NCBI GenBank assembly: GCA_001821395.1
Contig: MHLM01000015.1
Span: 1 to 64,000, forward strand
Direction: 5' to 3'
Source: Candidatus Lloydbacteria bacterium RIFCSPHIGHO2_02_FULL_50_18
GTDB lineage: Bacteria > Patescibacteriota > Minisyncoccia > Phycocordibacterales > UBA6899
Length of the DNA: 64,000 nt
Part shown: piece by piece, positions 703 through 25,562 of the stretch
Layout of the letters: each line of letters starts with the position of its first letter
Position numbering within the stretch: the stretch's first letter is position 1
Notes under the pieces: model-generated
Databases searched by the model: none
What the model was told of the DNA's origin: nothing
Seen by the model: only the letters and a program-made list of their open reading frames with translations
Made by a program: the position numbers and the translations under genes

Positions 703-703
703 A

Positions 704-1633
704 TTATAAGTAGATAAGACCTATTGCCACGGCATTAAGAATAAATGAAACGATCAACAGGTCAGGTAAACGAAAAAATCTGAATTTTGCCATCACTGAT
801 TCAATGACTGCGATAATAGCGGCAAACACACCCAACTTAAGGAAGAAGGCGGATAAGCCGATGATGAGCGCCCCGACCGATTCCGACGCGGCAAGACCTA
901 TTGGAAAGAAGACATTCGCACCGAGCATGAAGAAAATGACCAATTTATTAGCCGAAGCCCACTCCATCAACGCCAATTTTTTTCCGGAATATTCCAATAT
1001 CATTGCTTCGTGGATCATTGTGAGCTCAAGGTGCGTCGCAGGATTATCGAAAGGAAAACGCGCGGTCTCCGCCAGGAGAATGATGAAGAAACCGCTGAAT
1101 GCCAATATGGTTGGAATAAGATATTGCCCGTCAAAAAACAATGTATTACCTGATATGGTAAAAAGATCCGCAGTACCTGTCATGATCGCAATGGTCAATA
1201 AGGAAAAAATAAATCCCCCTTCCGCCAGTGCGGAAAGCGTCATCTCTCGACTTGAACCGAAACCACCGAATGCACTCCCCACGTCCATTCCCGCAAGTGC
1301 CAAGAAAAATGTTCCTATCGCAAGCGTATAGACGATCACAAGCATATCACTCATGAGGTGTGTACTCGAAAAAGAAGAAAATAGTGGAATACTTGCACCC
1401 GCAATGATCGTTACCCCAAAGACAACATACGGGGCTGCGCGAAATATCCAGGAAGCATCACTACTTACAACCTCATCTTTATAGAAAAGCTTTCGGAGGT
1501 CACTATACGGCTGTAATACACTTGCACCATCGCGGTTCTGCAATCGTGCCTTTATTTTTTTTATGATACCAACTGCAAGCGGTGCTACCGACGGTACAAG
1601 TATTATCTGAGTGAGCAAAAAGAAAAGATCCAT
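704..1633 (-). CDS. HycD/HyfC/NuoH-like membrane subunit (complex I subunit 1 family)
   Basis: 309 aa. The N-terminus LVPSVAPLAVGIIKKIKARLQNRDGASVLQPYSDLRKLF resembles the HycD/NuoH N-terminal consensus. About 8 TM helices. Confidence 0.8.
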   Translation of the reverse strand: MDLFFLLTQIILVPSVAPLAVGIIKKIKARLQNRDGASVLQPYSDLRKLFYKDEVVSSDASWIFRAAPYVVFGVTIIAGASIPLFSSFSSTHLMSDMLVIVYTLAIGTFFLALAGMDVGSAFGGFGSSREMTLSALAEGGFIFSLLTIAIMTGTADLFTISGNTLFFDGQYLIPTILAFSGFFIILLAETARFPFDNPATHLELTMIHEAMILEYSGKKLALMEWASANKLVIFFMLGANVFFPIGLAASESVGALIIGLSAFFLKLGVFAAIIAVIESVMAKFRFFRLPDLLIVSFILNAVAIGLIYL

Positions 1634-1639
1634 AAGTTT

Positions 1640-3691
1640 TTACAGTACAACGTATAATGAAATGATCAACGCGATAAAAATATAGGAAATATAGACATTG
1701 ATATTTCCACCTTGAATATTCTTCACTCGTAACGACAAGCCGTTGATCATTGTATTGATCGGTTCATAAAAATACTGTTGATACATATCAATGACATGCA
1801 TTGACACCTTCCCCGAATGTGAAAAATACCTACTCTGCTCATCGTGGTACCTTACCTCACGCTGAAGGCTTGGCTTCAGGACAGACTTAAAGACAAGAAT
1901 GATGGACCGAGCAAAACCGGTTGAAGTAATTTCCATCCGGGGTCCAAGAGTTGTGCCACAATCCCACGTTTTTCCGACGACTATTTTTTGTTTTCTGTTC
2001 ACAAGAAAGCGTACCGATATGACCACGATGCCAAAGACAACCGCGAAGAAACCGAGTATGACGGGGGCGGAGACGCGCGCGAAGCCGTCGGTAAGCAGAA
2101 GTCCGAGTTTTGGGGTAACAGAAACAAAAGACGTCGTAGTGTGAAAAATATCCAAACTTGCCGCGATTTGCTCAAGGAACCTTGTCACATATCCGGAAAA
2201 GATGCCAAAAAAGATAGTAACGATGGAGAGCAACCCCATGGCAACACGCATTGGCATGGCTGATTCCTTTGCGTGCAGGACTTCCCCGCTTCTCGGACGA
2301 GCAAGAAATATCGCTCCAAACGCTTTTGCGAAACACATCAATGCCAGCCCTCCGGTAAATACGAGCGAAGAAGCGGCGAGCACGAATATCCATCTCAACG
2401 AATAATGGAAGCTTGTTATGCCCTGAAACAACGACTGATATGTTAACCACTCACTGAAAAATCCGTTCAACGGGGGCAGTGCGGAGATCGCCATTGAACC
2501 GATAAGGAAGAAGAGCGCAGTCGATGGCATATATTTTATCAGGCCTCCATATTCTTCCATGTTCTTGGTATGTACCTCATTGATCACCGATCCGGCGCTC
2601 AAAAAGAGTAGCGACTTAAAGATCGCATGATTGATCGTATGAAAGAGGGCCGCAATAAAACTGAGCAATGCAAGTGAAGGGACTCCCAGAGTATAGAAGA
2701 TCAGTGCGCTACCAAGCCCAAGCAAGATGATGCCGATATTTTCGATACTGTGATACGCTAGCAACCTCTTAATATCATGCTCAGTAAGTGCATAGAGCAC
2801 TCCAAGTAAAGAAGAGACCGCACCGATGACCAACACTGTCTCACCCCACCACAATGGCACGGGCTGTAGTATGTCGAGGAATAATCTCATCATCATATAG
2901 ATACCGGTCTTGATCATGACACCCGACATGAGCGCAGAAACGTGAGAAGGAGCAGCCGGATGCGCCGCAGGAAGCCAAATATGAAGCGGGATGATACCGG
3001 CCTTTATTCCGAAACCGATCAGCGCAAAAATAAAGATCGCATTTTTGACAGACTGAGGTACAAGCGCTATCCCCGATGCAATAGCTGAAAAGTCAAAAGA
3101 ACCGGTGTACTTATAGAGGAACAAGAAAGCCAAGATAATGAACGCCGTCCCGACATAGGTCATGACGAGATACAGTGAGCCCGCTTTGATATTTGCCGGA
3201 TCGTTGCGATCATAGACAACGAGAAAGTAGGAGGCGATAGACATCAATTCCCATGCAATGAGAAAAAATAATGCATTTGCTGAAGATACGACCAAAAACA
3301 AACTCAGGAAGAGGATGTTATAAAAAAACCCAAGCGTCCCTAGCTGATATTTCCCGTAGTAATGCGTAACGTAACCGAATGCATAGACAGAACAAAAAAC
3401 ACCAATGAGCGAGATCGCAAATATAAAGAATGAAGAAAGTAGATCAACATGAAAAGAGAACGAGAGCAAGGAAAAAGGAGAACTCCCGATCATGAAATCA
3501 TACTCTTTACCCGCATAGATCGCAGCAGATGAAAAACATAACCCGAGAGCTGTGCCAAGTACCGCAAAAGAATTACTCCACCAATTTGTGACTTTGTCAT
3601 TTTTTTGCAAAAAAAGCGAGCCGATCGCGCCTGCTCCGAACAGCGCAAGCGCCGTAAGAAAAAATAGAGGAGAAAGTATTATTGTAAGCAT
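1640..3691 (-). CDS. HyfB/HycC/NuoL-like antiporter-type membrane subunit (NADH dehydrogenase subunit 5 / MrpA family)
   Basis: 683 aa polytopic protein with the conserved NuoL/MrpA-type core (WLPAAHPAAPSHVSALMSG, AYHSIENIG). Confidence 0.8.
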   Translation of the reverse strand: MLTIILSPLFFLTALALFGAGAIGSLFLQKNDKVTNWWSNSFAVLGTALGLCFSSAAIYAGKEYDFMIGSSPFSLLSFSFHVDLLSSFFIFAISLIGVFCSVYAFGYVTHYYGKYQLGTLGFFYNILFLSLFLVVSSANALFFLIAWELMSIASYFLVVYDRNDPANIKAGSLYLVMTYVGTAFIILAFLFLYKYTGSFDFSAIASGIALVPQSVKNAIFIFALIGFGIKAGIIPLHIWLPAAHPAAPSHVSALMSGVMIKTGIYMMMRLFLDILQPVPLWWGETVLVIGAVSSLLGVLYALTEHDIKRLLAYHSIENIGIILLGLGSALIFYTLGVPSLALLSFIAALFHTINHAIFKSLLFLSAGSVINEVHTKNMEEYGGLIKYMPSTALFFLIGSMAISALPPLNGFFSEWLTYQSLFQGITSFHYSLRWIFVLAASSLVFTGGLALMCFAKAFGAIFLARPRSGEVLHAKESAMPMRVAMGLLSIVTIFFGIFSGYVTRFLEQIAASLDIFHTTTSFVSVTPKLGLLLTDGFARVSAPVILGFFAVVFGIVVISVRFLVNRKQKIVVGKTWDCGTTLGPRMEITSTGFARSIILVFKSVLKPSLQREVRYHDEQSRYFSHSGKVSMHVIDMYQQYFYEPINTMINGLSLRVKNIQGGNINVYISYIFIALIISLYVVL

Positions 3692-3692
3692 A

Positions 3693-4289
3693 TTATTTTG
3701 CAGTTAGGGATCTCTTATCCACGACCTCCAGTATGTGCAGAAGCCCGAGCAAAATATCTTTGGGTGAGGGTGGGTCGCCGGGGATATGATAATGAACCGG
3801 GATGACAGAATCCACGCCGTCCATGACTGCATATGAACCCCTGAAGATCCCTCCATCAAGCGCATCATCACCGATCGCTACCACGATCTTAGGTTCCGGG
3901 GTCGCTTCATAGGCGTCCTTGACCGCCGAAGCCATATTTCTTGTAACTGGTCCTGTGACAAAAAGCATATCGGCATGGCGAGGAGAAGCGACAAAATGTA
4001 TACCAAAACGTTCAACATCGTAAAAATTATTCGATAGCGCAACCAATTCCTGCTCGCAGGCATTGTCGGAACCGGCATCAACCTGCCTTATTGCGAGCGA
4101 ACCATGAAAAAGGCGCTTAATATTATCGCGTACTTTTTCTCCCACCTCCGCATACGCTGCATTCGCAATATCCCCAGAGTCTATGCTAATGACATTATTT
4201 GGTGTCTTAATTATTTTGAGAAAAATATTCAACATATTTACCATTATGAAACGTCTAATACACTCGGACGAAATCGCTATCCCCCTCAA
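3693..4289 (-). CDS. NuoB/HycG-like small subunit (group 4 hydrogenase / complex I 20-kDa family) lacking most [4Fe-4S] Cys ligands
   Basis: Aligns along its length to E. coli HycG/NuoB (ERFGIHFVASPRHADMLFVTGPVT, IPVHYHIPGDPP). The canonical Cys positions read A-G-S-D-N-A-C, GDDALDGG and GDPP. Confidence 0.75.
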   Translation of the reverse strand: MRGIAISSECIRRFIMVNMLNIFLKIIKTPNNVISIDSGDIANAAYAEVGEKVRDNIKRLFHGSLAIRQVDAGSDNACEQELVALSNNFYDVERFGIHFVASPRHADMLFVTGPVTRNMASAVKDAYEATPEPKIVVAIGDDALDGGIFRGSYAVMDGVDSVIPVHYHIPGDPPSPKDILLGLLHILEVVDKRSLTAK

Positions 4290-4532
4290 CTATTTTTTCA
4301 GAAAAATCCACACAAATTGAACCCCATACCACAGATACCATGCTAACCATAAAACGAAATATGGTTGCAACTGGTGCAACTAATAGAATAAATATATGCA
4401 ATTTTTAAAATTAAGTCAAAAAATGGACATACTGAAGCCCTTTTCTGCCATTCTCGCTTCAAGAATGAACGGAGTGTCATTAGGAAAAATTGGTCGCGCA
4501 AAGCTCTTCGATTCCTGTTGGAGGAAATTCCA

Positions 4533-4572
4533 ATGCCGGGAATCTCGGCTACCGCCGCGGGTGATATTCAAT
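4533..4572. repeat. Repeat copy 1: 8-nt antisense tRNA-Pro 3' fragment (atgccggg) fused to a 34-nt element GGAATCTCGGCTACCGCCGCGGGTGATATTCAAT (identical at 25107-25140)
   Basis: Direct string identity between the two loci; a diverged third copy lies at 17406-17450. Confidence 0.7.
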
Positions 4573-4735
4573 CTCGACGACTCGATAATGAATATCCTTT
4601 CGATTCTCGTCGACAGTGCCGCAGAGTGAGAATCGGTCACGAGTTACTAAGCTTTTTATTTCGCTACGCTCATAAAAATCTAAGTACTCTCGACCCCGAC
4701 TCGCTCGCCTCGAAGACTCGGCATAGCTCCGTCTT

Positions 4736-4825
4736 TCGATCCCCGGGCGGGACTGAGGCAGCTCAGTCCCTCATCCCGACCATATGAAAAAACACCTGAT
4801 GGCGTTTTTTCATATGGTCGGGATG
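4736..4825. repeat. Plus-strand inverted partial copy of the tRNA-Pro 3' half (T-loop through CCA) interrupted by a 9-bp hairpin with a GCAG loop, followed by a 21-bp perfect inverted repeat that includes the real tRNA-Pro 3' end; also a bidirectional terminator
   Basis: ttcgatccccggg (4736-4748). Hairpin gggactgag-gcag-ctcagtccc (4749-4770). catcccgacca (4772-4782). Arms 4772-4792 / 4805-4825 with loop cacctgatggcg. Confidence 0.6.
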
Positions 4826-4888
4826 CCGGGAATCGAACCCGGTTCTTGCGAACCCGAATCGCAAATACTACCGGTGTACTACATCCCG
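4815..4888 (-). tRNA. tRNA-Pro (anticodon CGG), CCA encoded
   Basis: Manual cloverleaf: acceptor CGGGATG/CATCCCG with the C1:G72 pair typical of bacterial tRNA-Pro. Anticodon stem TGCGA/TCGCA, loop TTCGGGT, T-arm CCGGG-TTCGATT-CCCGG. 74 nt. Confidence 0.85.
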
Positions 4889-4955
4889 TCTATTCTCTGA
4901 CGGTTCCAACTCAATAAATAACTCATCTACTATACTCCACAAAACACCTTCAACG

Positions 4956-5189
4956 CTAGAGCCCGGTGAGCGCCGTTGAATAACTATCTAAAAACGAAGG
5001 GATCACAAGCACGAGCCCGATGAGTGGAATAATGAATACTGCAAGCGTGATCACCATCGTCCAAAAGAAATATTTTCTCGTCTTCTCTACTGAGACGTAT
5101 ATTGCATCGATCTTCCCCTCAAGCGTCTCAAGTTTTTTGTTTATTTCTGTTTCCATATTGCAAAGTGTAGCACGAGAAAATTCTTCCAA
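4956..5189 (-). CDS. hypothetical small protein (N-terminal coiled-coil, C-terminal TM helix)
   Basis: 77-aa ORF lying between the tRNA and the DUF2207 gene. Confidence 0.35.
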   Translation of the reverse strand: MEEFSRATLCNMETEINKKLETLEGKIDAIYVSVEKTRKYFFWTMVITLAVFIIPLIGLVLVIPSFLDSYSTALTGL

Positions 5190-5300
5190 ACAGCCTTGAG
5201 CGCGAGGCGTGGGGAAAGTGATGAGGAAGACTTATTCGTATAAGTTGACCGAATCACAGGGGTCCCCACAACAAAGTGGGCAAGGTTGTTTGGAGGGATT

Positions 5301-7082
5301 TTACCAACTTCCGCCACCACCGCCACCACCACCGCCTCCCGACATACCTCCCCCGCCCGAACCTCCGCCCGCACTTGCGAACGCAGTGCCCGCACTCGTA
5401 CTAAAGGCCCCCATCGAAGCTGCCAGCGCGGCCGCATTAAACCGTACCCCGCCGCCCTGGTACCAACGTTCGGCATCTTTCTTCGTGTACATGTCCACAA
5501 ACTTTTCCGCCCAGGCTTTCTCGACACCAAAGATCATCGCGTATGGAAGAAATCGTTCAAACGTTTTTGGCTCTTTTTCCGGTGCGTTTGCAAAATCGAT
5601 GCGATCCTTCTCCGCAACGGAGAGATATTCCTTAAACCCCTCGATCTCTTCACGCGCAATAGCACCCTGCTGTGTCCGTTTGCCCATAAAGTATCCGAAG
5701 ACCGTGACGATGACACCTGAAACAATGAGTGCCAAATTCCCGAATGAAAGCAGTGAGCCGATGACTATCAATGCGATACCTGTCAGCACGTAATTCCTCG
5801 TCGTGACCTGCGGATCCGTTTCAAAATAACCCAAAGAGGTGAGATCGACAGCGATGAGCTTTGATAGTTCACTCCTCACATCGACAAACTTGTGCGCAAG
5901 GGTTGATACGAGCACCGTTTCCCCGCTCGCACGAAGCGTATCGTAAAGCATTTTTTCCGGTGCAGTAAGCAGGCTCGTATCAACGCCGGGGAGAAAATGC
6001 AGTCGATGATCTTCGTTTGTGACCAACAGTCTCTTTTTCTTCGTACGCTCGATAGTGAGCAATCCGCGCACGGCGAAGTCGATGATCGCTGCTGATATTG
6101 TTTTGGGCTTGAGATCCGAGTGATACAAATATCCGAGCTCAAGTGTCGTCAAATGCTTCGGTATATCGTATTGCGCGATGATCGTCCCCCGGCCTTTTGG
6201 ATCGCGACCCTTTTTCCACCAGATATTCCACATGACCACGAATACGACAAGCGGTATGAGTGCACTCATGCCAAGAAAATCATTTTTCCACCAGCGATAG
6301 AATCCCACACTGTCTGCGAGTTTTTTCACCGATGACTTTGGAGCAATGAGGAATATGCCCTTCGGTATCCCTACGGCAACGGTCATTCCCTCATTTGAGT
6401 GCAGCGAGCCATCATAGGTAAAACGTACGGAATTGATGATTCCCGTTCCCTCTTGCGGAGTGGACGATGCGGTGCACAATGCAGTGCTTCCCAGGGGACC
6501 AACATAACACGCACTTGAAATACTATTTTCGTTGAGCGGAAGCGGCAGGATCACGTCAGTACGTACTGCGGCGATAGTTTGCTTCCATTCATTCCCCGTG
6601 ACATTCCAATAGAACTCATCCTTGCCTGCCAACCCCTGATTGATCGCACCCCAGACCGTGTAATGAATGACGTAGAGCTGTCTTCCCGTGACCTCAACAT
6701 CAGGGTCGCCGATCTTCAACTCCATATAATTCCCTCCGCCCGAATACTTCGACTCCCGGAGGTTTCCCTTGCCGTCCGTGACCATGATACTTGAGATCTC
6801 TATGCTGCGTGCTGCACGCTCTCCCGGAACGGTGAAAGTGAGCGGAATGCGACGATAGATCCCATGTCGCACTTCACCATCCGGATTAAAACTATAGACG
6901 ATCTCTTCTTGCACGACAGCACTACCGTTCGGTTTCAACTCGATATGCGCAGTGAATGCGTCGATAGAGTCATCCGCGAACGCGAAAAAAGGCGTCAAAA
7001 AAAAGAAAGCAGCACAGACCAGTCGAAGAAACCGATGATCAGTCATTGTCACCGAGCTTCTTTTTAACGTCCTCGAATTCAT
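5301..7082 (-). CDS. DUF2207-family membrane protein (signal peptide, extracytoplasmic domain, TM segments, Gly-rich C-terminal tail)
   Basis: 593 aa. Domain layout and the terminal GGGSGGGGMSGGGGGGGGGGSW tail match DUF2207. The start could alternatively be ATG 7046 (MTDHRFL). Confidence 0.6.
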   Translation of the reverse strand: MNSRTLKRSSVTMTDHRFLRLVCAAFFFLTPFFAFADDSIDAFTAHIELKPNGSAVVQEEIVYSFNPDGEVRHGIYRRIPLTFTVPGERAARSIEISSIMVTDGKGNLRESKYSGGGNYMELKIGDPDVEVTGRQLYVIHYTVWGAINQGLAGKDEFYWNVTGNEWKQTIAAVRTDVILPLPLNENSISSACYVGPLGSTALCTASSTPQEGTGIINSVRFTYDGSLHSNEGMTVAVGIPKGIFLIAPKSSVKKLADSVGFYRWWKNDFLGMSALIPLVVFVVMWNIWWKKGRDPKGRGTIIAQYDIPKHLTTLELGYLYHSDLKPKTISAAIIDFAVRGLLTIERTKKKRLLVTNEDHRLHFLPGVDTSLLTAPEKMLYDTLRASGETVLVSTLAHKFVDVRSELSKLIAVDLTSLGYFETDPQVTTRNYVLTGIALIVIGSLLSFGNLALIVSGVIVTVFGYFMGKRTQQGAIAREEIEGFKEYLSVAEKDRIDFANAPEKEPKTFERFLPYAMIFGVEKAWAEKFVDMYTKKDAERWYQGGGVRFNAAALAASMGAFSTSAGTAFASAGGGSGGGGMSGGGGGGGGGGSW

Positions 7083-17349: not shown

Positions 17350-17405
17350 ACATACTGAGGCGTTAAGCCTCGACGCTCATTTTAACATATTTAACGCCCT
17401 AGCTG

Positions 17406-17450
17406 TGGACCATAACGGAATCTCCACCTACCGTGGCGGGTGGATTCTCC
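17406..17450. repeat. Degenerate tRNA-Ala 3'-end-like repeat (att-like), diverged copy of the 25096-25140 element, located just past the end of hsdR
   Basis: tggaccataacggaatctccacctaccgtggcgggtggattctcc, compared by eye with tggaccgtacaggaatctcggctaccgccgcgggtgatattc and with the 3' part of tRNA-Ala(GGC). Confidence 0.5.
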
Positions 17451-17469: not shown

Positions 17470-19827
17470 CTATTTTACCCCCGCGTACAAACTTCTCTGG
17501 AAATCAAAAAAGGTCGAGCGAATAGCGTCTACATCCCCGAGAATATCCACCGCATCAGCAATAGCGTGATATTTCAAATTGAGCAATTGCGGGAGCTTTT
17601 CTTCGTCGAGCTCCTCGACTCCGCGCTCGACATACTTAGCAAGTACGAACTCAAGAAAATCTTTTTGATCATCATTCAATCCGCCCAAGATTGCACTCTT
17701 GGCACCCAAAACACGATCGACGCGCGAGATTGGCTGTACGCAAAACGAGACATAAGCGAGCACGTCAAACAAATCACTGTTTTCCGCATCGATCATCTTT
17801 TGAAGTATCTCAAGCTCATCCTTCCCATACCCCGCCTCAGCAAGCTTATCGAGAAATACTTTTCTCGTACTTGGATTGGCCCAAATTTCACGAAGCTCAA
17901 CTTCATTCTTATAAAATGAAGGGAGTGCACCGAACATGTTGTTCATAAATTCCTCTACCGAGATCGGCTTCCCATCTGCGCTCCAAAATGAGGTGGAGAT
18001 CATATGCTTTATTTCTCGATCCTTTCCATCCCGCAACTTTATTTTAAGCTTTTGTATGGGTGGAGGCACATCGCACACGCACGGCTTCTGTCCGCACACA
18101 ACGCATGGCGCGGTCGGAGGCTTCACACACACACAGGGCGTCATACCACATGCTGCACAGGGTTGTTTCGGCGCTGGCTCCACTATCGGCTCATCAATGG
18201 GCTCTCCGTCCCACTCAGGGTCAGCGAAGTGATGATACGCATCCACAAAGTCATAGATAGTGAAATACTCCTTTCCGTCAAAGAGCCGAGTTCCTCGTCC
18301 AACGATCTGCTTAAACTCAATCATGGAGTTTACGGGGCGCATCAGTACAATATTGCGAATGTTTCGCGCATCGACTCCCGTCGAGAGCTTTTGTGAGGTA
18401 GTGAGGATGGTGGGGATACTTTTTTCATTATCCTGGAATTCTTTCAAATACTGATCCCCGCGAGCACCGTCATTGGCCGTCACGCGCACACAATAATTTG
18501 GCTCAGTGCTCTCTTTCATCTGATTCACCAAGTCACGCACTGCGAGTGCATGGTCTTGTGTTGCGCAAAAGATAATAGTCTTTTCGTTTTGATTTATCTC
18601 CTCAAGTATGACGCGTACACGCTTCGCCTCACGCTCCTTGATCTCGATGATCTTATTAAAGTCCGCCTCTTCGTAGATTTTTCCTTCCTCCACTTCCCCC
18701 TCGATGATCTGGTCGTCCGAAGTGTACACATAATCATCCATCGTCGTCTTGATACGCTTCACCTTAAATGGCGTCAGAAATCCGTCATTCACTCCGGTTT
18801 TGAGCGAGTAAGTGTATACGGGCTTTCCGAAATAGTTGTAGGTGTCCACGTTGTCTTGCCTGCGTGGCGTCGCGGTGAGCCCAAGGTGTACCGCAGGCGC
18901 GAAGTGCTCGAGGATCGCTCGCCAATTGCTCTCATCGTTCGCACCCCCACGATGACACTCGTCAATAATGATCAGATCAAAAAAGTCCGAGGGATAGTCC
19001 CCGAAATATGGCGAACCATTTTGCCCGCTCATAAAAGTCTGGAATATGGTGAAAAAGATGCTCCCATTTGTGGGCACAGCACCCTTCTTCCGTATATCAA
19101 GTGGATTAATGCGCACAAGTGCATCCTCATGGAAAGCCGAGAATGAATTAAATGCCTGATTTGCTAAAATATTTCTGTCGGCAAGAAAGAGGATTCTCGG
19201 GCGCCTCCCTCCATCTCGCGCCAAGTTCCATCGTGACTGAAAAAGCTTCCACGCGATCTGAAATGCAATAAAAGTTTTCCCCGTGCCTGTCGCAAGCGTT
19301 AGAAGCGCCCGTTGCTTGTTTTCCGCAATTGCATCGAGTGTATTGTTCACGGCAATTTCTTGATAGTATCGCGCACTCTTTGTGCCGTTCATATCCTCAA
19401 ACGGGACAGCGGCAAATTTCTCCTTCCATGCATTTTGGTCAGAATAGACCATGTTCCATAATTCATCAGGAGTCGGGAAACGTTCCACATATTTCTCCGC
19501 ACCCGTCTCCATGCATATCTCGTATATTTCTTTGCCGTTAGTGGCATAGGTATATTTGATCTCAAGTTTCTCAGCATAAGCCTTCGCCTGTGCGACGCCC
19601 TCCGTCGCCGAGAGTCCCTCATGCTTTGCCTCCACAACCCCGATCTTCATGTTTTTATAAACCAAAATATAGTCAGCGATCTCAGGCTTCCCGCGTACTC
19701 CACCAGTCATAATGCGTCCGAGGGTTATGCGAAACTCCCGCAGGACCTTCGATCCCTCGATCTCGCCCCATCCGGCTTCTTTCAGCTTCGGATCAACATA
19801 TTCCGCTCGTGTTTCAGATTCATTCAT
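17470..19827 (-). CDS. hsdR: type I restriction enzyme R subunit
   Basis: N-terminal PD-(D/E)xK (ADYIL...VVEAKHEG). SF2 motifs (LATGTGKTF, DECHRG, TATPRRQ, motifs V/VI). EcoEI-R-type C-terminal domain. Unusual Cys-rich insert at 18067-18159. Confidence 0.85.
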   Translation of the reverse strand: MNESETRAEYVDPKLKEAGWGEIEGSKVLREFRITLGRIMTGGVRGKPEIADYILVYKNMKIGVVEAKHEGLSATEGVAQAKAYAEKLEIKYTYATNGKEIYEICMETGAEKYVERFPTPDELWNMVYSDQNAWKEKFAAVPFEDMNGTKSARYYQEIAVNNTLDAIAENKQRALLTLATGTGKTFIAFQIAWKLFQSRWNLARDGGRRPRILFLADRNILANQAFNSFSAFHEDALVRINPLDIRKKGAVPTNGSIFFTIFQTFMSGQNGSPYFGDYPSDFFDLIIIDECHRGGANDESNWRAILEHFAPAVHLGLTATPRRQDNVDTYNYFGKPVYTYSLKTGVNDGFLTPFKVKRIKTTMDDYVYTSDDQIIEGEVEEGKIYEEADFNKIIEIKEREAKRVRVILEEINQNEKTIIFCATQDHALAVRDLVNQMKESTEPNYCVRVTANDGARGDQYLKEFQDNEKSIPTILTTSQKLSTGVDARNIRNIVLMRPVNSMIEFKQIVGRGTRLFDGKEYFTIYDFVDAYHHFADPEWDGEPIDEPIVEPAPKQPCAACGMTPCVCVKPPTAPCVVCGQKPCVCDVPPPIQKLKIKLRDGKDREIKHMISTSFWSADGKPISVEEFMNNMFGALPSFYKNEVELREIWANPSTRKVFLDKLAEAGYGKDELEILQKMIDAENSDLFDVLAYVSFCVQPISRVDRVLGAKSAILGGLNDDQKDFLEFVLAKYVERGVEELDEEKLPQLLNLKYHAIADAVDILGDVDAIRSTFFDFQRSLYAGVK

Positions 19828-20477
19828 GATGATTGTTTCGCACCATACTGCTTAACTGCCACACCGTCATATCTTTCTTTGAGTCCCTCATAAATAAGAC
19901 TCACGAGGGGCTTATAATCATCGGCATGATCGATTTGCGCAAGCGCCTGACGGTAGCGATTCTTATTTTCCTTTTCTACTTTTATTGATATACCAATTAA
20001 CCCGTAGCGCTCCAAAATCAAATTCGCAGCAAGACGAGCAGTGCGTCCGTTCCCATCCCGAAATGGATGAACGCAGGTGATAGAATAATGCAACCATGCC
20101 GCCAGATGAATAACTCGCTCAACCGTCTGATGGACTTTCGCCATGCTTACATTTTTTCCTCTTATTATTCCCTCTGCTTTATCTAGCGCTTGTAATTTTT
20201 TCTGCAACTCGACCTCCCTTTCGTTCATGAGGTCATTTATTTTTGAGTGATGAGGGGGGACGTGACTTGAGTCTGTTATTTCAAGATTTTCCGTTCTATA
20301 CTTTCCCGCAATATCAGGCCAGGCATCTTTGAATATTTCCCGATGAATTTCCTTGATCGTTTCAATCGAAATACCCTTGTGTGATCGTGCAAATTTTCTT
20401 ACAAAACGAGAAGCGCGGATCACTCCAATCGCTTCTCGTTTTTGTAACTCTTCTTCCGAGCGCGGACACTCTACCAT
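19824..20477 (-). CDS. Fic/DOC-family protein (putative AMPylating toxin, FicT-like)
   Basis: Fic motif HPFRDGNGRTARL. Confidence 0.85.
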   Translation of the reverse strand: MVECPRSEEELQKREAIGVIRASRFVRKFARSHKGISIETIKEIHREIFKDAWPDIAGKYRTENLEITDSSHVPPHHSKINDLMNEREVELQKKLQALDKAEGIIRGKNVSMAKVHQTVERVIHLAAWLHYSITCVHPFRDGNGRTARLAANLILERYGLIGISIKVEKENKNRYRQALAQIDHADDYKPLVSLIYEGLKERYDGVAVKQYGAKQSS

Positions 20478-20485
20478 GGCAATGC

Positions 20486-20680
20486 TTACGCTACTTTTAG
20501 CGCAAGTTTTTCAAATTCCCCGCGATCAAGCTTGCTTCCCTCAAGCGCACTCGAATAATAGGCATGCTCAATATCCCAACTTTTTTCAAGGGCGGATTTT
20601 TGTTTTGGCGTAAGCTGAGAAATCTGTCGTTCTGCAACTTTCTTACTCGCCATTAACTGTACGAGCCGTAGATTCTTCAT
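20486..20680 (-). CDS. FicA/VbhA-like small antitoxin carrying the inhibitory [S/T]xxxE[G/N] helix motif
   Basis: 64-aa ORF. Motif IEHAYYSSALEGS. Its stop lies 9 nt before the Fic ATG, in a different frame. Confidence 0.55.
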   Translation of the reverse strand: MKNLRLVQLMASKKVAERQISQLTPKQKSALEKSWDIEHAYYSSALEGSKLDRGEFEKLALKVA

Positions 20681-20772: not shown

Positions 20773-21978
20773 TCACAACTCCCCAGCAAAGGCCTTTTTC
20801 AACACTGATTTTTTAAGCTCCTCAATATCAGCAAGTTTTTGCCCGTAGATTCCTTCAAGTTTTTTTGTCTGCTCCGCAAGCGCATCGAGCTTTTTGACGA
20901 TGGTTTTTTGCTCTGAGACAGATGGAAATGGAAACCGCTCATGCTCAAACGTTGCCATGTTGATATTGGCCTGCGCACTTCCTTTTCCTTTTGCCTGGAG
21001 TACTGCCTTAAATGATTGCAAAAGATACTCGACAAAATTAGTATCTGCAATTTTGGGATTAGCAACAAGTCCGATCACGCTATCAGGAAAACACGCATCG
21101 AAATTCAGAATTCCAGTTTCTGCGATATTCGCCGCAATCGTAATGCAGATAGTTCCTCTCGGCCACAGCTTGCTCTGCGCCAGTCCCGCCTCGCTATACG
21201 ACTGTGAGTACTCCACAATAAAGTGTCCAGAATTTCGAATATCTCCCGTCTGAATAAAGGGGTACTTTCCGCCATAGAGTTTTTTGTCGTTTCTTGGGCG
21301 ATGCTTAGATTTTCCTCTGCCGAATTGCAGGGAGACTTCTTCTAGCGTCTTTTTCTCCCATTTCGAATTTTCAAAAACCCCCTGCAAATACGATTCAAAA
21401 AGTTCGCGGGAATTCTTCAAATTCTTCTCCGCATTCTCCTTCGCCTTCTCCACTCCCTCAAAAACCTCATCAAGAATTTTTACGATGCGCTTTTGCTCGA
21501 TCGCAGAAGGAAAAGGTATCTCAACCTCTTTTAATTTTGTTCCAGAAAGTTCCTTAAAAGTTGTACCACTACCCAAACTATTCAAAAGTTCAACTGAATC
21601 TTTCAAAAAATAATAGAGAAATTTTGTATCAAGATTTTTATTCGGTATTAATCCCTTACACCCCTGATTTGTTGAAATTTCTTTTGTGTTTATCGCCAAG
21701 TGACCAATCGGAGCACGGGTAGACAAAATAATCGAGTTGGGTGGAATGATTTTTGCTGACGACCTTTCTAATCCAGCCTTTGAAATTTTTCGTTCTGTTT
21801 CCTCAACGTATATTTTCCTAAGTCTCCCCATGTCTTTGGGTGTGATCCACAAAATATTTCCATCCCAGTACCTCAAAACGCCCGTTTTAGGAGTTCCTCC
21901 GTTTACAATCTCGCAAACCTCCCCAAGTTTTTTTATTTGCCAGTTAGTTTTCATAGTGAGAAATAATTTGCTTTCCAT
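20773..21978 (-). CDS. hsdS: type I restriction-modification specificity subunit
   Basis: Two target-recognition-domain layout with conserved central/C-terminal helices. TRD motif EIVNGGTPKT. Alternative start ATG at 21954. Confidence 0.85.
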   Translation of the reverse strand: MESKLFLTMKTNWQIKKLGEVCEIVNGGTPKTGVLRYWDGNILWITPKDMGRLRKIYVEETERKISKAGLERSSAKIIPPNSIILSTRAPIGHLAINTKEISTNQGCKGLIPNKNLDTKFLYYFLKDSVELLNSLGSGTTFKELSGTKLKEVEIPFPSAIEQKRIVKILDEVFEGVEKAKENAEKNLKNSRELFESYLQGVFENSKWEKKTLEEVSLQFGRGKSKHRPRNDKKLYGGKYPFIQTGDIRNSGHFIVEYSQSYSEAGLAQSKLWPRGTICITIAANIAETGILNFDACFPDSVIGLVANPKIADTNFVEYLLQSFKAVLQAKGKGSAQANINMATFEHERFPFPSVSEQKTIVKKLDALAEQTKKLEGIYGQKLADIEELKKSVLKKAFAGEL

Positions 21979-23113
21979 TCTGTATCAATTGGTCGTAAGT
22001 GAGAATGTCTATATCATGTAAACTAGAGTTTAAAAAATGAAGAGCTTTTTTCTCATCCTCAGTAAAGGCATCTGACCGACCGAGAATGAGCTGGACTCTT
22101 GGTCTTAGTATTCGAACAGAGTGCTGAATCGACAAAGTTTTTTTATAGTCTTCGATTCTTTGTAAATAAATTAAGGACTGACCAATTGCTTCCGAGAAAG
22201 GGCTCGTAGGGAAATGGCAACGATGCGAAGTATCATATCTAAACAGCGGGCTGCCGACACTTGGCCTCTTAACTTCAATGAGGCTGATAAATCCATCGGG
22301 CGTTTCGAGTACGATGTCTGCCTCAGAGTTATCTTCTCCAATCTTCCTGAATGTGTGCTTTTTGTAGTACTCGACTCCAAAAACCCACAAATTAGCCCCA
22401 ATCCATTTATGAAACACACCCTCTGGTTGATTTGCGTGATATTTCTTTAGTGCACCATTTCCTTTTATTGCCTCAAGGAAATTCACGTCAGATTCGATGC
22501 TTAAAAGGTATTCTAAATTAGCAATAGCCTCTTTGTGTTCTTTTTGTTTTATTGCTGCGCTCAAACTCTCGACGTCAAGGGCATCAATATTCTCAATAAA
22601 CTTCTGAAATAAACTATTTCTTTCAGCGGTGCCCAACTTATTAAAAAGCTGAAACAGCTGATCAGATGTTAATGCTTGCGACCCATGCAATAACTGTGAA
22701 AATGCATTCTTTCGCTCCACAAGTTCACTTACGTTTTGATCAGTAAATTTTAAATTTTCCTTAGAAGTTAAGTCCAGTAAATCTAATGATTCAAGAAACT
22801 TAATAAAGCGAGTAAGTGCTCCTCCATGAAAACTGAAAGATTGATTATGTGGTATGCCAGTATCTTTTGAAAATCTTTGAATGCGCAATGAAAACCCAGT
22901 GGTGTCTTGATTATAAATAGCGGTTATTTCTTGCACTGCGCTTTCGCGTATGACCTCAAAAACTTTCTTTTCTTTTTGATCGTTATAAAAATCTTTAAAA
23001 TCTTTTAGCTCAAATACTTTTGAAATGTATCTGATGTTCCCATCTTTCCCAATCGCCCTACTCACATAAGTAAGTGCGGGGTCTTTTTTGATCGCATACT
23101 CTCCATTGCTCAT
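21944..23113 (-). CDS. uncharacterised protein with a putative PD-(D/E)xK nuclease core, nested between hsdM and hsdS (possibly DUF4263/Shedu-like; candidate accessory defence gene)
   Basis: 389 aa. Motif SEADIVLETPDGFISLIEVKRP (D...E-x-K). The gene overlaps both neighbours by a few nt, so it is in the operon. Confidence 0.5.
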   Translation of the reverse strand: MSNGEYAIKKDPALTYVSRAIGKDGNIRYISKVFELKDFKDFYNDQKEKKVFEVIRESAVQEITAIYNQDTTGFSLRIQRFSKDTGIPHNQSFSFHGGALTRFIKFLESLDLLDLTSKENLKFTDQNVSELVERKNAFSQLLHGSQALTSDQLFQLFNKLGTAERNSLFQKFIENIDALDVESLSAAIKQKEHKEAIANLEYLLSIESDVNFLEAIKGNGALKKYHANQPEGVFHKWIGANLWVFGVEYYKKHTFRKIGEDNSEADIVLETPDGFISLIEVKRPSVGSPLFRYDTSHRCHFPTSPFSEAIGQSLIYLQRIEDYKKTLSIQHSVRILRPRVQLILGRSDAFTEDEKKALHFLNSSLHDIDILTYDQLIQNGKQIISHYEN

Positions 23114-24555
23114 AACAAGTTTTTCAATATCTGAGCACTTTCTTTATCCAATTTCTCCATTTCCTTCAAAATCTCCTTCGGGGTGCGCAGCGCTACCTCA
23201 CCTCCCTTGTTTGGATTCTTTGCCGATAGGTCGAAGGTCTTCTGGTCGACGTCTTTTATGTCTATGCTCCATGAATTTTCAGAATCACCATTCGTCTCTT
23301 GGAGTTTTATAAAATCAGCAAGGTCGGCTTCGTTGAGTGCATTGGTCTTGCCGAGGTTGCGGTCGAGGTTGAGCTGATAGAACCAGACTTTTTTCGTTGG
23401 TGCACCCTTCTCAAAAAAGAGTATGACCGTTTTCACCCCTGCACCAGTGAATGTGCCACCTGGCAGGTCGAGCACGGTGTGGAGATTGCAACTTTCAAGC
23501 AGCATTTTGCGAAGCGACACCGAAGCATTGTCGGTGTTGGAAAGAAAGGTGTTTTTGATGACCACACCCGCTTTTCCTCCGGCTTTCAGCATTTTGATGA
23601 AATGCTGGAGAAAAAGAAATGCCGTCTCTCCCGTTTTGATAGGAAAATTCTGCTGTACCTCAGGTCTCTCTGAGCCTCCAAATGGCGGATTCGCAAGCAC
23701 GATCTCATAGCGGTCTTTCTCCTGAATATCCGCAAGGTTTTCGGCAAGTGTGTTGGTGTGAATGATGTTCGGAGCCTCGATGCCATGGAGAATCATGTTC
23801 ATGATGCCAATGATGTAGGCGAGCGATTTCTTCTCCTTGCCGTAAAATGTCTTCTTCTGAAGTGTCTGCATGTCGCTTGTCGAAAGCTTCTTGCTCTCCT
23901 TCAAGTATTCAAACGCTTCCACGAGGAATCCCGCCGAGCCCACAGCCCCATCATAGACTTTATCGCCGATTTTTGGAGCGACCACCTTCACGATGGTCTT
24001 GATGAGTGGGCGCGGGGTGTAGTACTCGCCACCATTGCGCCCTGCGTTGCCCATGTTCTTTATCTTGCCCTCGTAAAGGTGTGAAAGCTCGTGCTTTTCG
24101 CTCTGCGAGCGAAAGTGCATTCCATCCACGAGGTTCAGCACCTCGCGGAGGTTGTACCCACTTTGTATCTTGTTTTTGATCTCGCTAAAAATTTCTCCGA
24201 TCTTGTACTCGATCGTGTCGGGACTCACTGCATCCGCCTTGAATTTCTTGAAATACGGAAAAAGCTCGCGCTCGACGAAATCCTTAAGGTCATCACCCGA
24301 CAGTGCTTTGCTGTGGTCAATCTTCTTATCTCCTGTCTTGGGCACTGCCCACACTTCCCAGCGAAACTTCGGCGAGATGATATATTCGTATTTTTTACCT
24401 GCGAGCTTCGCCTCGGTCTCCTTATCCTTTTCAAGATCATCAAGATACTTGAGAAAGAGCACCCACGAAGTCTGCTCGATATAATCCAGCTCACTCGACG
24501 CCCCCGCATCCTTACGCAATATGTCATCAATATTTTTAAAGTGTTGTTCAAACAT
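23110..24555 (-). CDS. hsdM: type I restriction-modification N6-adenine DNA methyltransferase
   Basis: HsdM N-terminal domain. SAM-binding motif DGAVGSAGFL. Catalytic motif NPPFG. Start moved to ATG 24555 because the longer ORF would overlap the tRNA. Confidence 0.9.
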   Translation of the reverse strand: MFEQHFKNIDDILRKDAGASSELDYIEQTSWVLFLKYLDDLEKDKETEAKLAGKKYEYIISPKFRWEVWAVPKTGDKKIDHSKALSGDDLKDFVERELFPYFKKFKADAVSPDTIEYKIGEIFSEIKNKIQSGYNLREVLNLVDGMHFRSQSEKHELSHLYEGKIKNMGNAGRNGGEYYTPRPLIKTIVKVVAPKIGDKVYDGAVGSAGFLVEAFEYLKESKKLSTSDMQTLQKKTFYGKEKKSLAYIIGIMNMILHGIEAPNIIHTNTLAENLADIQEKDRYEIVLANPPFGGSERPEVQQNFPIKTGETAFLFLQHFIKMLKAGGKAGVVIKNTFLSNTDNASVSLRKMLLESCNLHTVLDLPGGTFTGAGVKTVILFFEKGAPTKKVWFYQLNLDRNLGKTNALNEADLADFIKLQETNGDSENSWSIDIKDVDQKTFDLSAKNPNKGGEVALRTPKEILKEMEKLDKESAQILKNLL

Positions 24556-24561
24556 TTTTTT

Positions 24562-24637
24562 TGGTGGACCATGGGAGAATCGAACTCCCCACCTCTTCCA
24601 TGCCATGGAAGCGCTCTACCAAATGAGCTAATGGCCC
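24562..24637 (-). tRNA. tRNA-Ala (anticodon GGC), CCA encoded
   Basis: Manual fold: acceptor GGGCCAT/ATGGTCC with G3:U70. D-arm GCTC-ATTTGGTA-GAGC. Anticodon loop ATGGCAT. T-arm GGGAG-TTCGATT-CTCCC. 76 nt. Confidence 0.85.
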
Positions 24638-24892
24638 GTAGAAAGATGATAACTTACAAATGGGTTTTCTTCAATGAAGACGGGGGGGGTCGAGTCGTGA
24701 AGGGAGTCGAAGCTTATTCGAGATCGTCATCGCAAGCTTTGTGGAGATGGCAAGTCGTGTAGTGCGTTGCCGGAGGGCAACACTGCTACGAAAAAGCCAA
24801 CCGGGTGTCTGGCTTTGCGGACTTGGCTTACAGCTTCAGTACGCCTTTTCGATTTATTCAGAGCGAAGCTCTTCATAAATAACGAAAAGCCC

Positions 24893-24988
24893 TTCGACTC
24901 CCCGCCGCAAGTGAAGCAGTTCACTTGCTTGAGTCCACAGGTACAAAAAAATTACGATTTCTCGTAATTTTTTTGTACCTGTGGACTC
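24893..24988. repeat. Inverted partial copy of the tRNA-Ala(CGC) 3' half (T-loop, GCAG-loop hairpin insert, acceptor 3' strand) followed by a 27-bp perfect inverted repeat / bidirectional terminator
   Basis: ttcgactccccg (24893-24904). Hairpin gcaagtgaa-gcag-ttcacttgc (24907-24928). Arms 24931-24957 / 24962-24988 with loop tttc. Confidence 0.6.
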
Positions 24989-25052
24989 ACGGGGAGTCGA
25001 ACCCCGGACTCGGCAATGCGAATGCCGTGTAATACCACTTTACTATGAGCCC
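24982..25052 (-). tRNA. tRNA-Ala (anticodon CGC), CCA not encoded
   Basis: Manual fold: acceptor GGGCTCA/TGAGTCC with G3:U70. Anticodon arm CGGCA-TTCGCAT-TGCCG. T-arm CGGGG-TTCGACT-CCCCG. Confidence 0.8.
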
Positions 25053-25095
25053 AGTAGGCGAATAGTAGCGAATTTATCCGTGGGGTGCAAATTGT

Positions 25096-25140
25096 TGGAC
25101 CGTACAGGAATCTCGGCTACCGCCGCGGGTGATATTCAAT
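25096..25140. repeat. Repeat copy 2: 14-nt antisense copy of the tRNA-Ala(UGC) 3' end (tggaccgtacagga) fused to the same 34-nt element as 4539-4572; first unit of a degenerate tandem array of tRNA-3' fragments (cgtacaggaat at 25101, 25145 and 25314)
   Basis: Exact 34/34 identity with 4539-4572. Repeated cgtacaggaat and ccagtttc-r-attt strings between 25096 and 25420. Confidence 0.65.
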
Positions 25141-25398
25141 TTCGTACAGGAATTTCGACGCCTACTGCGTCAGTACCCAGTTTCAATTTGAATACAGGAC
25201 TCTTCCTCTACGAGGACAGTATACCTTTCACCACAGAGAGTACTTCTTGTTTTCTAGCTCACTTCGTTCGTAAGTAAACAATGTCGTCCGTTTACTGAGG
25301 ATAAGAATCCTGCCGTACAGGAATCTCTCCCCTTACAGGGGCAGTGTCCAGTTTCGATTTACTCAAAATAGGAATTTCTCGTAAATATCGAAACAGGC

Positions 25399-25500
25399 TT
25401 CGAGTCCTTACGCAAGCAATGCAGATTGCTTGCTACGGTCCACACCATATAAGAAAAAACTGCCTTACGGCAGTTTTTACTTTATGGTGTGGACCGTACA
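25399..25500. repeat. Inverted partial copy of the tRNA-Ala(UGC) 3' half with GCAG-loop hairpin insert, plus a long imperfect inverted repeat / terminator
   Basis: ttcgagtcct (25399-25408). Hairpin gcaagcaat-gcag-attgcttgc (25412-25433). tacggtccacacc (25434-25446) inverted against gtgtggaccgta (25486-25497). Terminator aaaaactgcc-ttac-ggcagttttt. Confidence 0.55.
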
Positions 25501-25562
25501 GGACTCGAACCTGCCACCCCCGCATTGCAAATGCGGTGCTCTACCAGATGAGCTAACGGCCC
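25490..25562 (-). tRNA. tRNA-Ala (anticodon UGC), CCA not encoded
   Basis: Manual fold: acceptor GGGCCGT/ACGGTCC with G3:U70. Anticodon arm CCGCA-TTTGCAA-TGCGG. T-arm GCAGG-TTCGAGT-CCTGT. Confidence 0.85.

Follow-up and report, generated by a model that had tools for sequence, protein, structure and literature searches.

The Shedu family of anti-phage nucleases is represented by two structurally solved enzymes, SduA of B. cereus (BcSduA; PDB 8ti8 and 8ti9) and SduA of E. coli (EcSduA; PDB 8ps4 and 8ps5). In Gu et al. (2023/2025), Shedu is described as a single-gene system, tetramers are predicted for all major Shedu families, and 602 of 5,499 Shedu genes are placed within restriction-modification (R-M) systems, type I included (Supplemental Figure S8E). 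According to the literature on EcSduA, the N-terminal domain both keeps the nuclease in check and detects DNA ends, and anti-phage protection depends on the nuclease active site. Genes of other families have also been found embedded in type I R-M loci. TgvAB from VPI-2 of Vibrio cholerae, a GmrSD-like type IV enzyme, protects alone when cloned without the R-M genes (bioRxiv 10.1101/2024.04.04.588119), and the HEC systems are embedded-gene candidates of Payne et al., as cited in the same preprint.

Here, we describe a 389-aa protein (ORF389, referred to as SduA) whose gene is flanked by hsdM and hsdS in a type I R-M operon, within a 64,000-nt stretch of DNA (the window) from Candidatus Lloydbacteria. 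Like BcSduA and EcSduA, the protein has a C-terminal PD-(D/E)xK nuclease with all motif I–IV residues, and it shares with EcSduA the layout of N-terminal domain, helical linker and DUF4263. Its length is similar to that of the solved proteins (382 and 408–411 aa). The gene is likewise a single one and is also found alone in defence islands. In contrast to the solved enzymes, the host is a CPR bacterium. Neither enzyme has an N-terminal domain to which that of SduA aligns, and SduA may accordingly sense another signal. Shedu genes in R-M loci, among them type I loci, are the arrangement reported by Gu et al. in the figure cited above. The likeness to TgvAB and the HEC systems lies in autonomous defence genes placed between hsd genes and co-located with active type I R-M, as a layered defence; the effector families differ, and the window carries two modules, Shedu and Fic with a small upstream ORF.

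Results

Position of sduA in the R-M operon

The sduA gene was located on the minus strand, with the ATG at 23113 and the TAA at 21946–21944, exactly where a 389-aa ORF overlapping hsdM and hsdS had been predicted (Table 1). A rough base-composition estimate (~0.068 stops per codon) gave a chance of ~1e-12 for 389 open codons. Upstream, the hsdM stop and the sduA start overlap by 4 nt (ATGA). Downstream, the overlap with hsdS is 11 nt with the ATG at 21954, the 393-aa start of public gene calls, or 35 nt if the longest hsdS ORF is taken, and the codons overlapping the sduA 3' end preserve the hsdS start. We infer from the 4-nt and 11-nt overlaps that sduA is almost certainly co-transcribed with hsdM and hsdS, with translational coupling probable. 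The original prediction had likewise concluded co-transcription from the overlaps. Equally tight overlaps would be expected of a protein made in fixed stoichiometry with the methyltransferase. Direct or inverted repeats on either side of sduA were searched for and not found, which leaves the gene with no identified insertion scar. The identical SduA protein was encoded on 18 contigs, and the four representative places came from four different samples.

Table 1. Features of the type I R-M operon and of sduA, in window coordinates
Feature	Position	Strand	Evidence
Promoter-like site TTGAAG-17-TATCAT, upstream of tRNA	24646..24674	-	Consensus scan, weak
tRNA-Ala(GGC)	24562..24637	-	ARAGORN; Rfam tRNA, 60.7 bits
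hsdM, methyltransferase, 481 aa	23110..24555	-	Pfam N6_Mtase PF02384 (2.3e-63), HsdM_N PF12161; public gene call
sduA, Type 1 Shedu nuclease, 389 aa	21944..23113	-	ORF, Pfam, PADLOC, Foldseek, UniProt name
Beta-rich N-terminal putative sensor domain, residues ~1–112	22778..23113	-	AF2 model and alignment
Alpha-helical linker, residues ~113–228	22430..22777	-	AF2 secondary structure
DUF4263/SduA_C PD-(D/E)xK nuclease domain, residues 229–389	21944..22429	-	Pfam stretch 229–377
Catalytic codon E231	22421–22423	-	Invariant residue
Catalytic codon D266	22316–22318	-	Invariant residue
Catalytic codon E280	22274–22276	-	Invariant residue
Catalytic codon K282	22268–22270	-	Invariant residue
Catalytic codon Q312	22178–22180	-	Invariant residue
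hsdS, specificity subunit, two target-recognition domains, 393 aa	20773..21954	-	Methylase_S PF01420 (5.3e-60), two stretches
64-aa ORF with Fic inhibitory-helix motif S-x-x-x-E-G (SSALEG), 8 nt upstream of fic	20486..20680	-	Motif
fic, 217 aa, between hsdS and hsdR, HPFRDGNGRTAR motif	19824..20477	-	Pfam Fic (1.8e-20)
hsdR, restriction/translocase subunit, 785 aa	17470..19827	-	ResIII (8.1e-38), EcoEI_R_C (6.9e-23), Helicase_C, HSDR_N_2

Judged by its domains, the type I R-M operon is intact, with HsdM, an HsdS with two TRDs and an HsdR with nuclease and SF2 motor domains. The longest hsdM ORF (498 aa) overlaps the tRNA-Ala gene; the real hsdM start is thus the ATG at 24555, which lies 6–7 nt behind the CCA end of the tRNA. 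Upstream of the operon, the scan picked out a single promoter-like site (Table 1), in a region no richer in such sites than shuffled sequence. Promoter and terminator scans inside the operon likewise returned sites no more frequently than in shuffled sequence.

Assignment to the Shedu family

Profile and model evidence identified ORF389 as an ordinary member of the described Shedu (SduA/DUF4263) anti-phage nuclease family. Pfam SduA_C (PF14082) matched with 52.9 bits, above the gathering cut-off of 27 (E 6.3e-14), over residues 229–377, corresponding to profile positions 2–159 of 159. Nineteen PADLOC SduA models also matched (best PDLC00385, 1.2e-33), and one of them, PDLC00394, reached N-terminal residues 4–150 as well. 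Profile searches detected BcSduA (1.9e-4 in one, 1.4e-29 in another) and EcSduA (2.8e-11). The AF2 model had a mean pLDDT of 80, with about 85–92 in the nuclease domain, and its top Foldseek matches were 8ps5, 8ti9 and 8ti8, all with a probability of 1.00 (8ps5_A, 3.5e-8; 8ti9_B, 2.7e-7, TM-score 0.68 normalised to the target). UniProt names the exact sequence a Shedu SduA C-terminal-domain protein. The predicted DUF4263/Shedu-type nuclease was hence borne out by profile, PADLOC and fold matches, and the uncertainty originally attached to the family assignment is removed by the same results and the UniProt name.

A previously undescribed defence family that merely resembles Shedu had been proposed for this gene. 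Its GenBank label is "hypothetical protein", NCBIfam holds no model for it, and phmmer with the single sequence retrieved nothing from the PDB, the Shedu structures being reached by profile searches alone. We rejected this reading as hardly credible, given the match above the SduA_C gathering threshold, the PADLOC SduA models covering N- and C-terminal parts, the profile and fold matches to solved SduA structures and the UniProt name. Publications already cover the Shedu family, how its nuclease works and how often it resides in R-M loci, and databases already tag ORF389, so "candidate novel" does not describe the gene. Viral contigs scanned for SduA relatives contained none.

Active site and domain architecture

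As read from the alignment, the active site is complete, with PD-(D/E)xK motifs I–IV (E, D, ExK, Q) all present. E231, D266, E280, K282 and Q312 were invariant across 22 homologues (33–75% identity) and in register with E204, D249, E264, K266 and Q295 of BcSduA (motifs I–IV, numbered as in Gu et al.). The stretch SEADIVLETPDGFISLIEVKRP, in which a PD-(D/E)xK-like core had been recognised, corresponds to residues 263–284 (22262–22327) and includes D266, E280 and K282. The spacing between motifs I and II is 35 residues in ORF389, compared with 45 in characterised Shedu.

By the definition of Gu et al., the protein has a Type 1 Shedu architecture according to sequence and model, with an N-terminal regulatory domain and a linker before DUF4263. 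The N-terminal region had been described as long and helical; in the model, a beta-rich domain is followed by the helical linker, with helices at 125–143, 150–159, 162–174, 178–205 and 212–218. Invariant residues of the N-terminal domain were Y16, R28, Y29, K32, F34, R56, Q79, R80, F81, K83, Q91–F93 and F95. The domain recurred in Shedu proteins only, always at the N-terminus, and SduA_C was its sole Pfam partner seen in more than one member.

When the N-terminal domain and the linker were searched separately, Pfam gave no match even at E = 10. Profile comparison aligned part of the linker to BcSduA and detected no sequence similarity of the N-terminal domain to the BcSduA or EcSduA sensor domains, including the EcSduA clamp (residues 1–145, with the conserved Trp25). 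A fold search with the N-terminal domain, from a model with a pLDDT of 59, assigned no fold. Since the domain has no match among solved Shedu sensors, SduA may respond to a different trigger, and its precise mode of cleavage may also differ. Proteins of ~105–127 aa encoded upstream of shorter Bacteroidota-type Shedu genes were considered as a split-off version of the domain and rejected for lack of similarity (best E 0.49).

Sister operons and homologues

The GC content of sduA was 0.374 (GC3 0.349), compared with 0.477 (GC3 0.602) for hsdM. Sister R-M operons, whose HsdM and HsdR were 86–88% and 71–79% identical to those of the window, carried other genes between hsdM and hsdS: AbiLi/AbiLii and PDC candidates, PD-Lambda-3 and unknowns, or a gene for an unknown 183-aa protein. 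Their hsdS–hsdR gaps contained Fic, DUF3800 or small ORFs. Operons whose HsdM is at least 80% identical number in the thousands.

Homologues with 52–68% identity were usually standalone, in defence or mobile-element contexts. They were found beside toxin–antitoxin genes, among housekeeping genes and on a conjugative element, and another adjoined an EcoRI-like methylase and GmrSD. Relatives with 39–75% identity adjoined wHTH, UDG, PIN_12 or recombinase genes. For the full-length subfamily, most loci that could be interpreted had no R-M genes nearby. Type I R-M loci did house another member of the subfamily (L044) and a distantly related protein (L022), and from these two the subfamily may have a selective affinity for such loci. 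The distribution was patchy over unrelated phyla, including Lloydbacteria and other Parcubacteria, Sedimentisphaerales, Desulfobacteraceae, Saccharibacteria and Omnitrophica.

From these comparisons, sduA is best read as horizontally acquired cargo in the variable hsdM–hsdS gap of a widely transferred R-M operon. The standalone homologues, the varied gap contents of the sister operons and the lower GC content of sduA together point to an autonomous nuclease in a cargo slot.

Discussion

SduA is most probably a Type 1 Shedu enzyme acting as an autonomous single-gene defence, carried as cargo between hsdM and hsdS. By homology with the B. cereus and E. coli enzymes, it would most likely form a homotetramer via its nuclease domains. 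The N-terminal domains may hold the enzyme inactive as long as no nucleic-acid cue of infection is sensed; once activated, SduA would nick or cut DNA and phage replication would stop. By analogy with the characterised enzymes, we infer anti-phage activity for SduA. Through co-expression with hsdM and hsdS, the cell would gain a second defence layer with another mechanism each time the R-M system is expressed.

The nested position of sduA, whose ends overlap the hsdM stop and the hsdS start, would also suit an accessory functionally coupled to the R-M system, which either finishes phage DNA cut by HsdR or acts as a PrrC-like guard against anti-restriction proteins. Restriction makes free dsDNA ends, which EcSduA recognises, two relatives reside in type I R-M loci, and Gu et al. 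suggest that Shedu may complement R-M or BREX. We nevertheless regard such coupling as unlikely. The full-length subfamily is found without nearby R-M genes at most of its interpretable loci, and in sister operons with near-identical backbones the gap is filled by unrelated genes, so the R-M enzyme can do without SduA. In addition, the L044 gene follows hsdS in an unrelated R-M lineage (HsdM 30% identical), and by sequence the N-terminal domain is not of the EcSduA end-clamp class.

PrrC and RloC are ABC-ATPase-type tRNA anticodon nucleases held in check by the R-M enzyme. SduA shares with them the position in a type I R-M locus and the proposed second-line role, but the resemblance is positional only: ORF389 has the fold of a DNA nuclease and no ATPase domain, and its homologues function away from R-M loci. 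Scans with Pfam, NCBIfam and PADLOC matched SduA models only and gave neither an ATPase nor an anticodon-nuclease family. The PrrC/RloC-like analogy of the original prediction is not supported, as the nearest homologues lie outside R-M loci and the sister operons have unrelated genes in the gap. A guard of the R-M system, triggered by restriction products (DNA ends, stalled translocation complexes) or by inhibition of HsdM2S1 by phage anti-restriction proteins, is quite improbable; if it were true, the codon-overlapped placement of sduA would reflect functional coupling to R-M rather than hitch-hiking.

Two further readings appear very unlikely. A DNA-repair nuclease with a housekeeping role (NucS/EndoMS type), or some other PD-(D/E)xK enzyme unconnected with defence and placed in the operon by chance, could be considered because Gu et al. 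name EndoMS as the structure nearest to the Shedu nuclease domain outside its own family, and the NucS-type endonuclease 2vld was a weak Foldseek match (E ~1.5e-2). Shedu profiles and structures matched far better than NucS, however, and the patchy distribution across unrelated phyla, the foreign GC content and the defence or mobile-element neighbours also speak against it. Foreign GC content and the reduced genome of the CPR host would fit an inactive or decaying passenger gene without current function, equally improbable given the intact full-length ORF, the retention of all catalytic residues and of many invariant N-terminal residues, the identical protein on 18 contigs with representative places from four samples, and the overlapping codons that preserve the downstream hsdS start.

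This CPR protein has an N-terminal sensor class unmatched in sequence to the two solved ones, and its subfamily could reveal a new Shedu trigger. Its location in an R-M operon makes it a clean natural test case for synergy between an embedded system and the host R-M. The R-M lineage has two variable cargo slots, hsdM–hsdS and hsdS–hsdR, in which Shedu, AbiL, PD-Lambda-3, Fic and DUF3800 were found, and the unannotated genes in these slots are reasonable candidates for new defence genes.

The second embedded gene of the operon is fic, with its small upstream ORF, and the operon thus holds two separate embedded modules. PADLOC matched fic to PDC-S04 (1.3e-23) and SoFic (1.6e-21). The 64-aa ORF gave nothing in Pfam and no BLASTP alignment to a SoFic-like N-terminus, so its designation as a putative Fic inhibitor follows from the motif only; it is called as a gene in public assemblies. 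The fic stop overlaps the hsdR start (ATGA).

Family assignment and architecture of ORF389

ORF389 (sduA), the 389-aa gene between hsdM and hsdS, is a new, uncharacterised representative of Shedu (SduA), a known defence family, and the genomic setting in which it lies is also of a known kind. Pfam family SduA_C (PF14082, formerly DUF4263) covered residues 229–377 end to end (52.9 bits; gathering score 27). Nineteen PADLOC SduA models matched the protein (best 1.2e-33), and one of these, PDLC00394, extended over the N-terminal 150 residues as well. A profile from 22 homologues matched B. cereus SduA (8ti9) in the PDB, and a broader profile matched the B. cereus (1.4e-29) and E. coli (2.8e-11) proteins. 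Mean pLDDT of the AlphaFold2 model was 80.4, with values near 90 for the C-terminal domain. Its eight top Foldseek matches were all SduA structures, from E. coli (8ps5) and B. cereus (8ti8, 8ti9), each with a probability of 1.00, and other PD-(D/E)xK enzymes (Nt.BspD6I, FokI, NucS) ranked far lower. The Pfam, PADLOC, profile and Foldseek matches concur with the Shedu likeness proposed in the original prediction.

The gene had also been framed as undescribed, which was wrong. The exact sequence is UniProt A0A1G2CU70, under the name 'Shedu protein SduA C-terminal domain-containing protein'; its GenBank entries, OGZ04929.1 and OGZ08874.1 (Candidatus Lloydbacteria bacterium), are labelled hypothetical protein. 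Gu et al. counted 602 of 5,499 Shedu genes within R-M systems, type I included, and suggested a possible role of Shedu as a complement to R-M and BREX. TgvAB of V. cholerae VPI-2, an experimentally documented defence system embedded, like sduA, in a type I R-M cluster, protects alone when cloned without the R-M genes; a survey of embedded genes by Payne et al. is cited in the same paper (bioRxiv 10.1101/2024.04.04.588119). Therefore, both the family and the R-M-embedded arrangement are already known. What is still of interest is the sensor class to which the uncharacterised N-terminal domain of ORF389 belongs, together with the unannotated genes found at the equivalent cargo positions of sister operons.

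The model comprised a beta-rich N-terminal domain (about residues 1–112) with one helix at its end, a helical linker (about 113–228) and an alpha/beta nuclease domain (229–389). The same three-part layout is described for E. coli SduA, and ORF389 is a 'Type 1 Shedu' as Gu et al. define it. The 'long helical N-terminal region' originally described was therefore only half right: the linker is helical, but the domain preceding it is beta-rich.

Residues E231, D266, E280, K282 and Q312 were invariant among 22 homologues of 33–75% identity. In the HMMER alignment they fell on motifs I (E204), II (D249), III (E264/K266) and IV (Q295) of B. cereus SduA, as listed by Gu et al. (full-length residue = chain residue + 151, checked by hand; the PDB construct carries E264A). 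Homology and structure prediction show that ORF389 is a putative PD-(D/E)xK-class DNA nuclease whose Shedu active site is intact. Active-site mutants of E. coli SduA lose both defence and dsDNA cleavage. By analogy with the characterised Shedu enzymes, ORF389 would form a tetramer via its nuclease domains and would be auto-inhibited by the N-terminal domain and linker, the deletion of which makes B. cereus and E. coli SduA toxic or active. An infection-associated nucleic-acid signal would activate ORF389, which would then nick or cleave phage DNA.

The N-terminal domain was strongly conserved, with invariant residues including Y16, R28, Y29, K32, F34, R56, Q79–F81, K83, Q91–F93 and F95. No Pfam family was found for it, profile searches aligned it with neither of the N-terminal domains in the two solved Shedu proteins, and its stand-alone model (pLDDT 59) was too poor for fold assignment. 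Its profile had 127 matches among 1.84 billion representative proteins, and the domain was N-terminal in all. A Shedu nuclease was present by local profile in 31 of the 32 matches of 340–460 aa, and its motifs were seen by eye in the 32nd; matches of lesser length were contig-end fragments. No Pfam family other than SduA_C accompanied the domain in two or more proteins; SduA_C did so in 40/107 matches scanned. The domain is thus a Shedu-specific class of putative sensor.

Operon organization

ORF389 is part of a compact minus-strand operon containing tRNA-Ala(GGC), hsdM, ORF389, hsdS, a 64-aa ORF, fic and hsdR, with complete type I R-M domain sets in HsdM, HsdS and HsdR (Pfam). The hsdM stop and ORF389 start overlapped by 4 nt (ATGA), ORF389 and the hsdS start overlapped by 11 nt, and the PD-(D/E)xK-like peptide reported earlier was located at residues 263–284; the observation of an ORF overlapping both neighbours was therefore confirmed. 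From this anatomy, we infer that sduA is co-transcribed with hsdM and hsdS. The sole promoter-like site for the hsdM operon was 5' of tRNA-Ala(GGC), and 6–7 nt separated the CCA end of this tRNA from the hsdM ATG (24555). Transcription of the R-M/Shedu operon thus appears to yield a tRNA–mRNA co-transcript. The longest hsdM ORF (498 aa) was rejected as an artefact, since the 17 codons at its start extend into the tRNA gene.

Features of the R-M/Shedu operon and its surroundings in the window
Feature	Length	Coordinates	Strand
tRNA-Ala(TGC), (CGC), (GGC), in a row		24562-25562	-
tRNA-3'-end-like fragment		25309-25345	
tRNA-3'-end-like fragment		25096-25132	
Promoter-like site 5' of tRNA-Ala(GGC)		within 24555-24674	-
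tRNA-Ala(GGC)		24637..24562	-
hsdM	481 aa	24555..23110	-
ORF389 (sduA)	389 aa	23113..21944	-
hsdS	393 aa	21954..20773	-
Promoter-like site, extended -10		20715-20688	
Fic module		19824-20680	-
64-aa ORF	64 aa	20680..20486	-
fic	217 aa	20477..19824	-
hsdR		19827..17470	-
tRNA-3'-end-like fragment beyond hsdR stop		17385-17425	-

Cargo slots and genomic contexts

Relatives of the window HsdM numbered in the thousands; the best 120 (80–88% identity) were in CPR, Omnitrophota, Margulisiibacteriota and other phyla. Three sister operons (L071–L073) shared 86–88% (HsdM), 71–79% (HsdR) and 34–42% (HsdS) identity with the window, the last being expected with variable specificity domains. Their backbone was the same as the window's, and the genes differed in both gaps (n = 3).

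Gene content of the two gaps in the window and sister operons
Operon	Coordinates	hsdM–hsdS gap	hsdS–hsdR gap
Window		SduA	64-aa ORF + Fic (217 aa)
L071	1770-5879	three unknowns + PD-Lambda-3_A (3.7e-26)	DUF3800
L072	9461-13042	unknown 183-aa gene	Fic (447 aa)
L073	9586-16148	AbiLi (6.5e-72), AbiLii, PDC-S32-like, PDC-S42-like	four small ORFs

The composition of sduA (GC 0.374, GC3 0.349) is clearly foreign: GC and GC3 are 0.477 and 0.602 in hsdM, and 0.482 and 0.536 in hsdR.

Relatives of sduA were gathered from reference genomes, metagenomes and a protein collection, and their neighbour genes were annotated. The window arrangement was repeated in all same-organism contigs. A 67%-identical homologue stood alone, adjoining three toxin–antitoxin pairs, a 68%-identical one lay among housekeeping genes, and a 52%-identical one from Parcubacteria (L033, 3537-8483; also L034) was flanked by genes for an EcoRI-like methylase and for a GmrSD/HNH enzyme. 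Further relatives adjoined wHTH regulators, UDG, PIN_12, DUF4209 or a recombinase, or were on a conjugative element. Among the relatives examined, L044 (40% identical; 178-5957) was the only other subfamily member in a type I R-M locus. Its gene order, hsdM–NYN–unknown–hsdS–sduA, places sduA differently from the window, and the two HsdM were only 30% identical. The distant relative L022 had the order DUF4145–sduA–hsdS–hsdM.

Together, the homologue contexts, sister-operon gaps and foreign GC content show that sduA is interchangeable cargo, one occupant of a variable slot, and no intrinsic part of the window R-M enzyme. Restriction-generated DNA ends may feed the window Shedu, an attractive idea for which the analysis gives no support; that close homologues are autonomous speaks against dependence on the R-M enzyme.

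The 123-, 126- and 249-aa genes of L071, the 183-aa gene of L072 and the small ORFs of L073 had no Pfam or PADLOC match; these unannotated occupants of the cargo slots are candidates for new defence genes. An hsdS 3'-end fragment in the second gap of L073 (15114-15209; 84% identity over 32 aa) hints at cargo exchange via recombination at conserved hsdS ends.

In L033, sduA was 12 nt 3' of the EcoRI-type adenine methylase gene (PF13651, 9e-139) and was followed after 11 nt by the GmrSD_N+HNH type IV enzyme; a SoFic gene was upstream. No EcoRI-type endonuclease was among the genes annotated on this contig. The methylase may stand without a partner, as an orphan, or may form a type II-like R-M system with Shedu. 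L044 is an independent type I R-M locus with several embedded genes: a MerR-type HTH was fused to the N-terminus of its HsdM, the unknown ORF was 295 aa, and sduA began 4 nt after hsdS, with the contig end falling within it.

Fic module, tRNA-like fragments and a possible two-gene Shedu variant

A second embedded module, between hsdS and hsdR, encoded a Fic protein (Pfam Fic 1.8e-20; PADLOC PDC-S04 1.3e-23, SoFic also matched) that has the canonical HPFRDGNGRTAR motif. The 64-aa ORF, 8 nt 5' of fic, contained SSALEG, which fits the Fic inhibitory-helix motif [ST]xxxE[GN]. Judging from these motifs, the pair looks like a class I Fic toxin–antitoxin pair (VbhA/VbhT-like) or a split class II Fic. 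A promoter-like site was near this module, and the Fic of L072 occupied the matching slot.

Fragments resembling tRNA 3' ends were present between the tRNA-Ala genes and just beyond the hsdR stop. The latter fragment had a local score of 40 with the 25096 fragment (14 ± 3 in shuffles; 0/500 reached it) and of 26 with the tRNA-Ala(GGC) 3' end (15 ± 3; 5/500). No integrase was seen in the R-M operon. The likeness of the fragment beyond hsdR to these sequences could reflect an att-like duplication; the entire R-M operon (7.1 kb) would then be an island integrated at tRNA-Ala.

A clade of smaller Shedu proteins (334–354 aa), mostly from Bacteroidota, matched only residues about 130–388 of the window protein (L007–L020, L045, L048–L051, L056–L058, L060, L062). 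In 23/23 distinct loci examined, a conserved ORF of ~105–149 aa lay directly 5' of the Shedu gene, abutting or overlapping it by 1 nt (e.g., L010, 1025-1348 and 1348-2412). The small protein had no clear Pfam family (weak WYL match in one member, E 0.0087) and was unrelated to the window N-terminal domain. Here a small protein encoded separately may take the place of the fused sensor domain, and the clade looks like a conserved Shedu variant made up of two genes.
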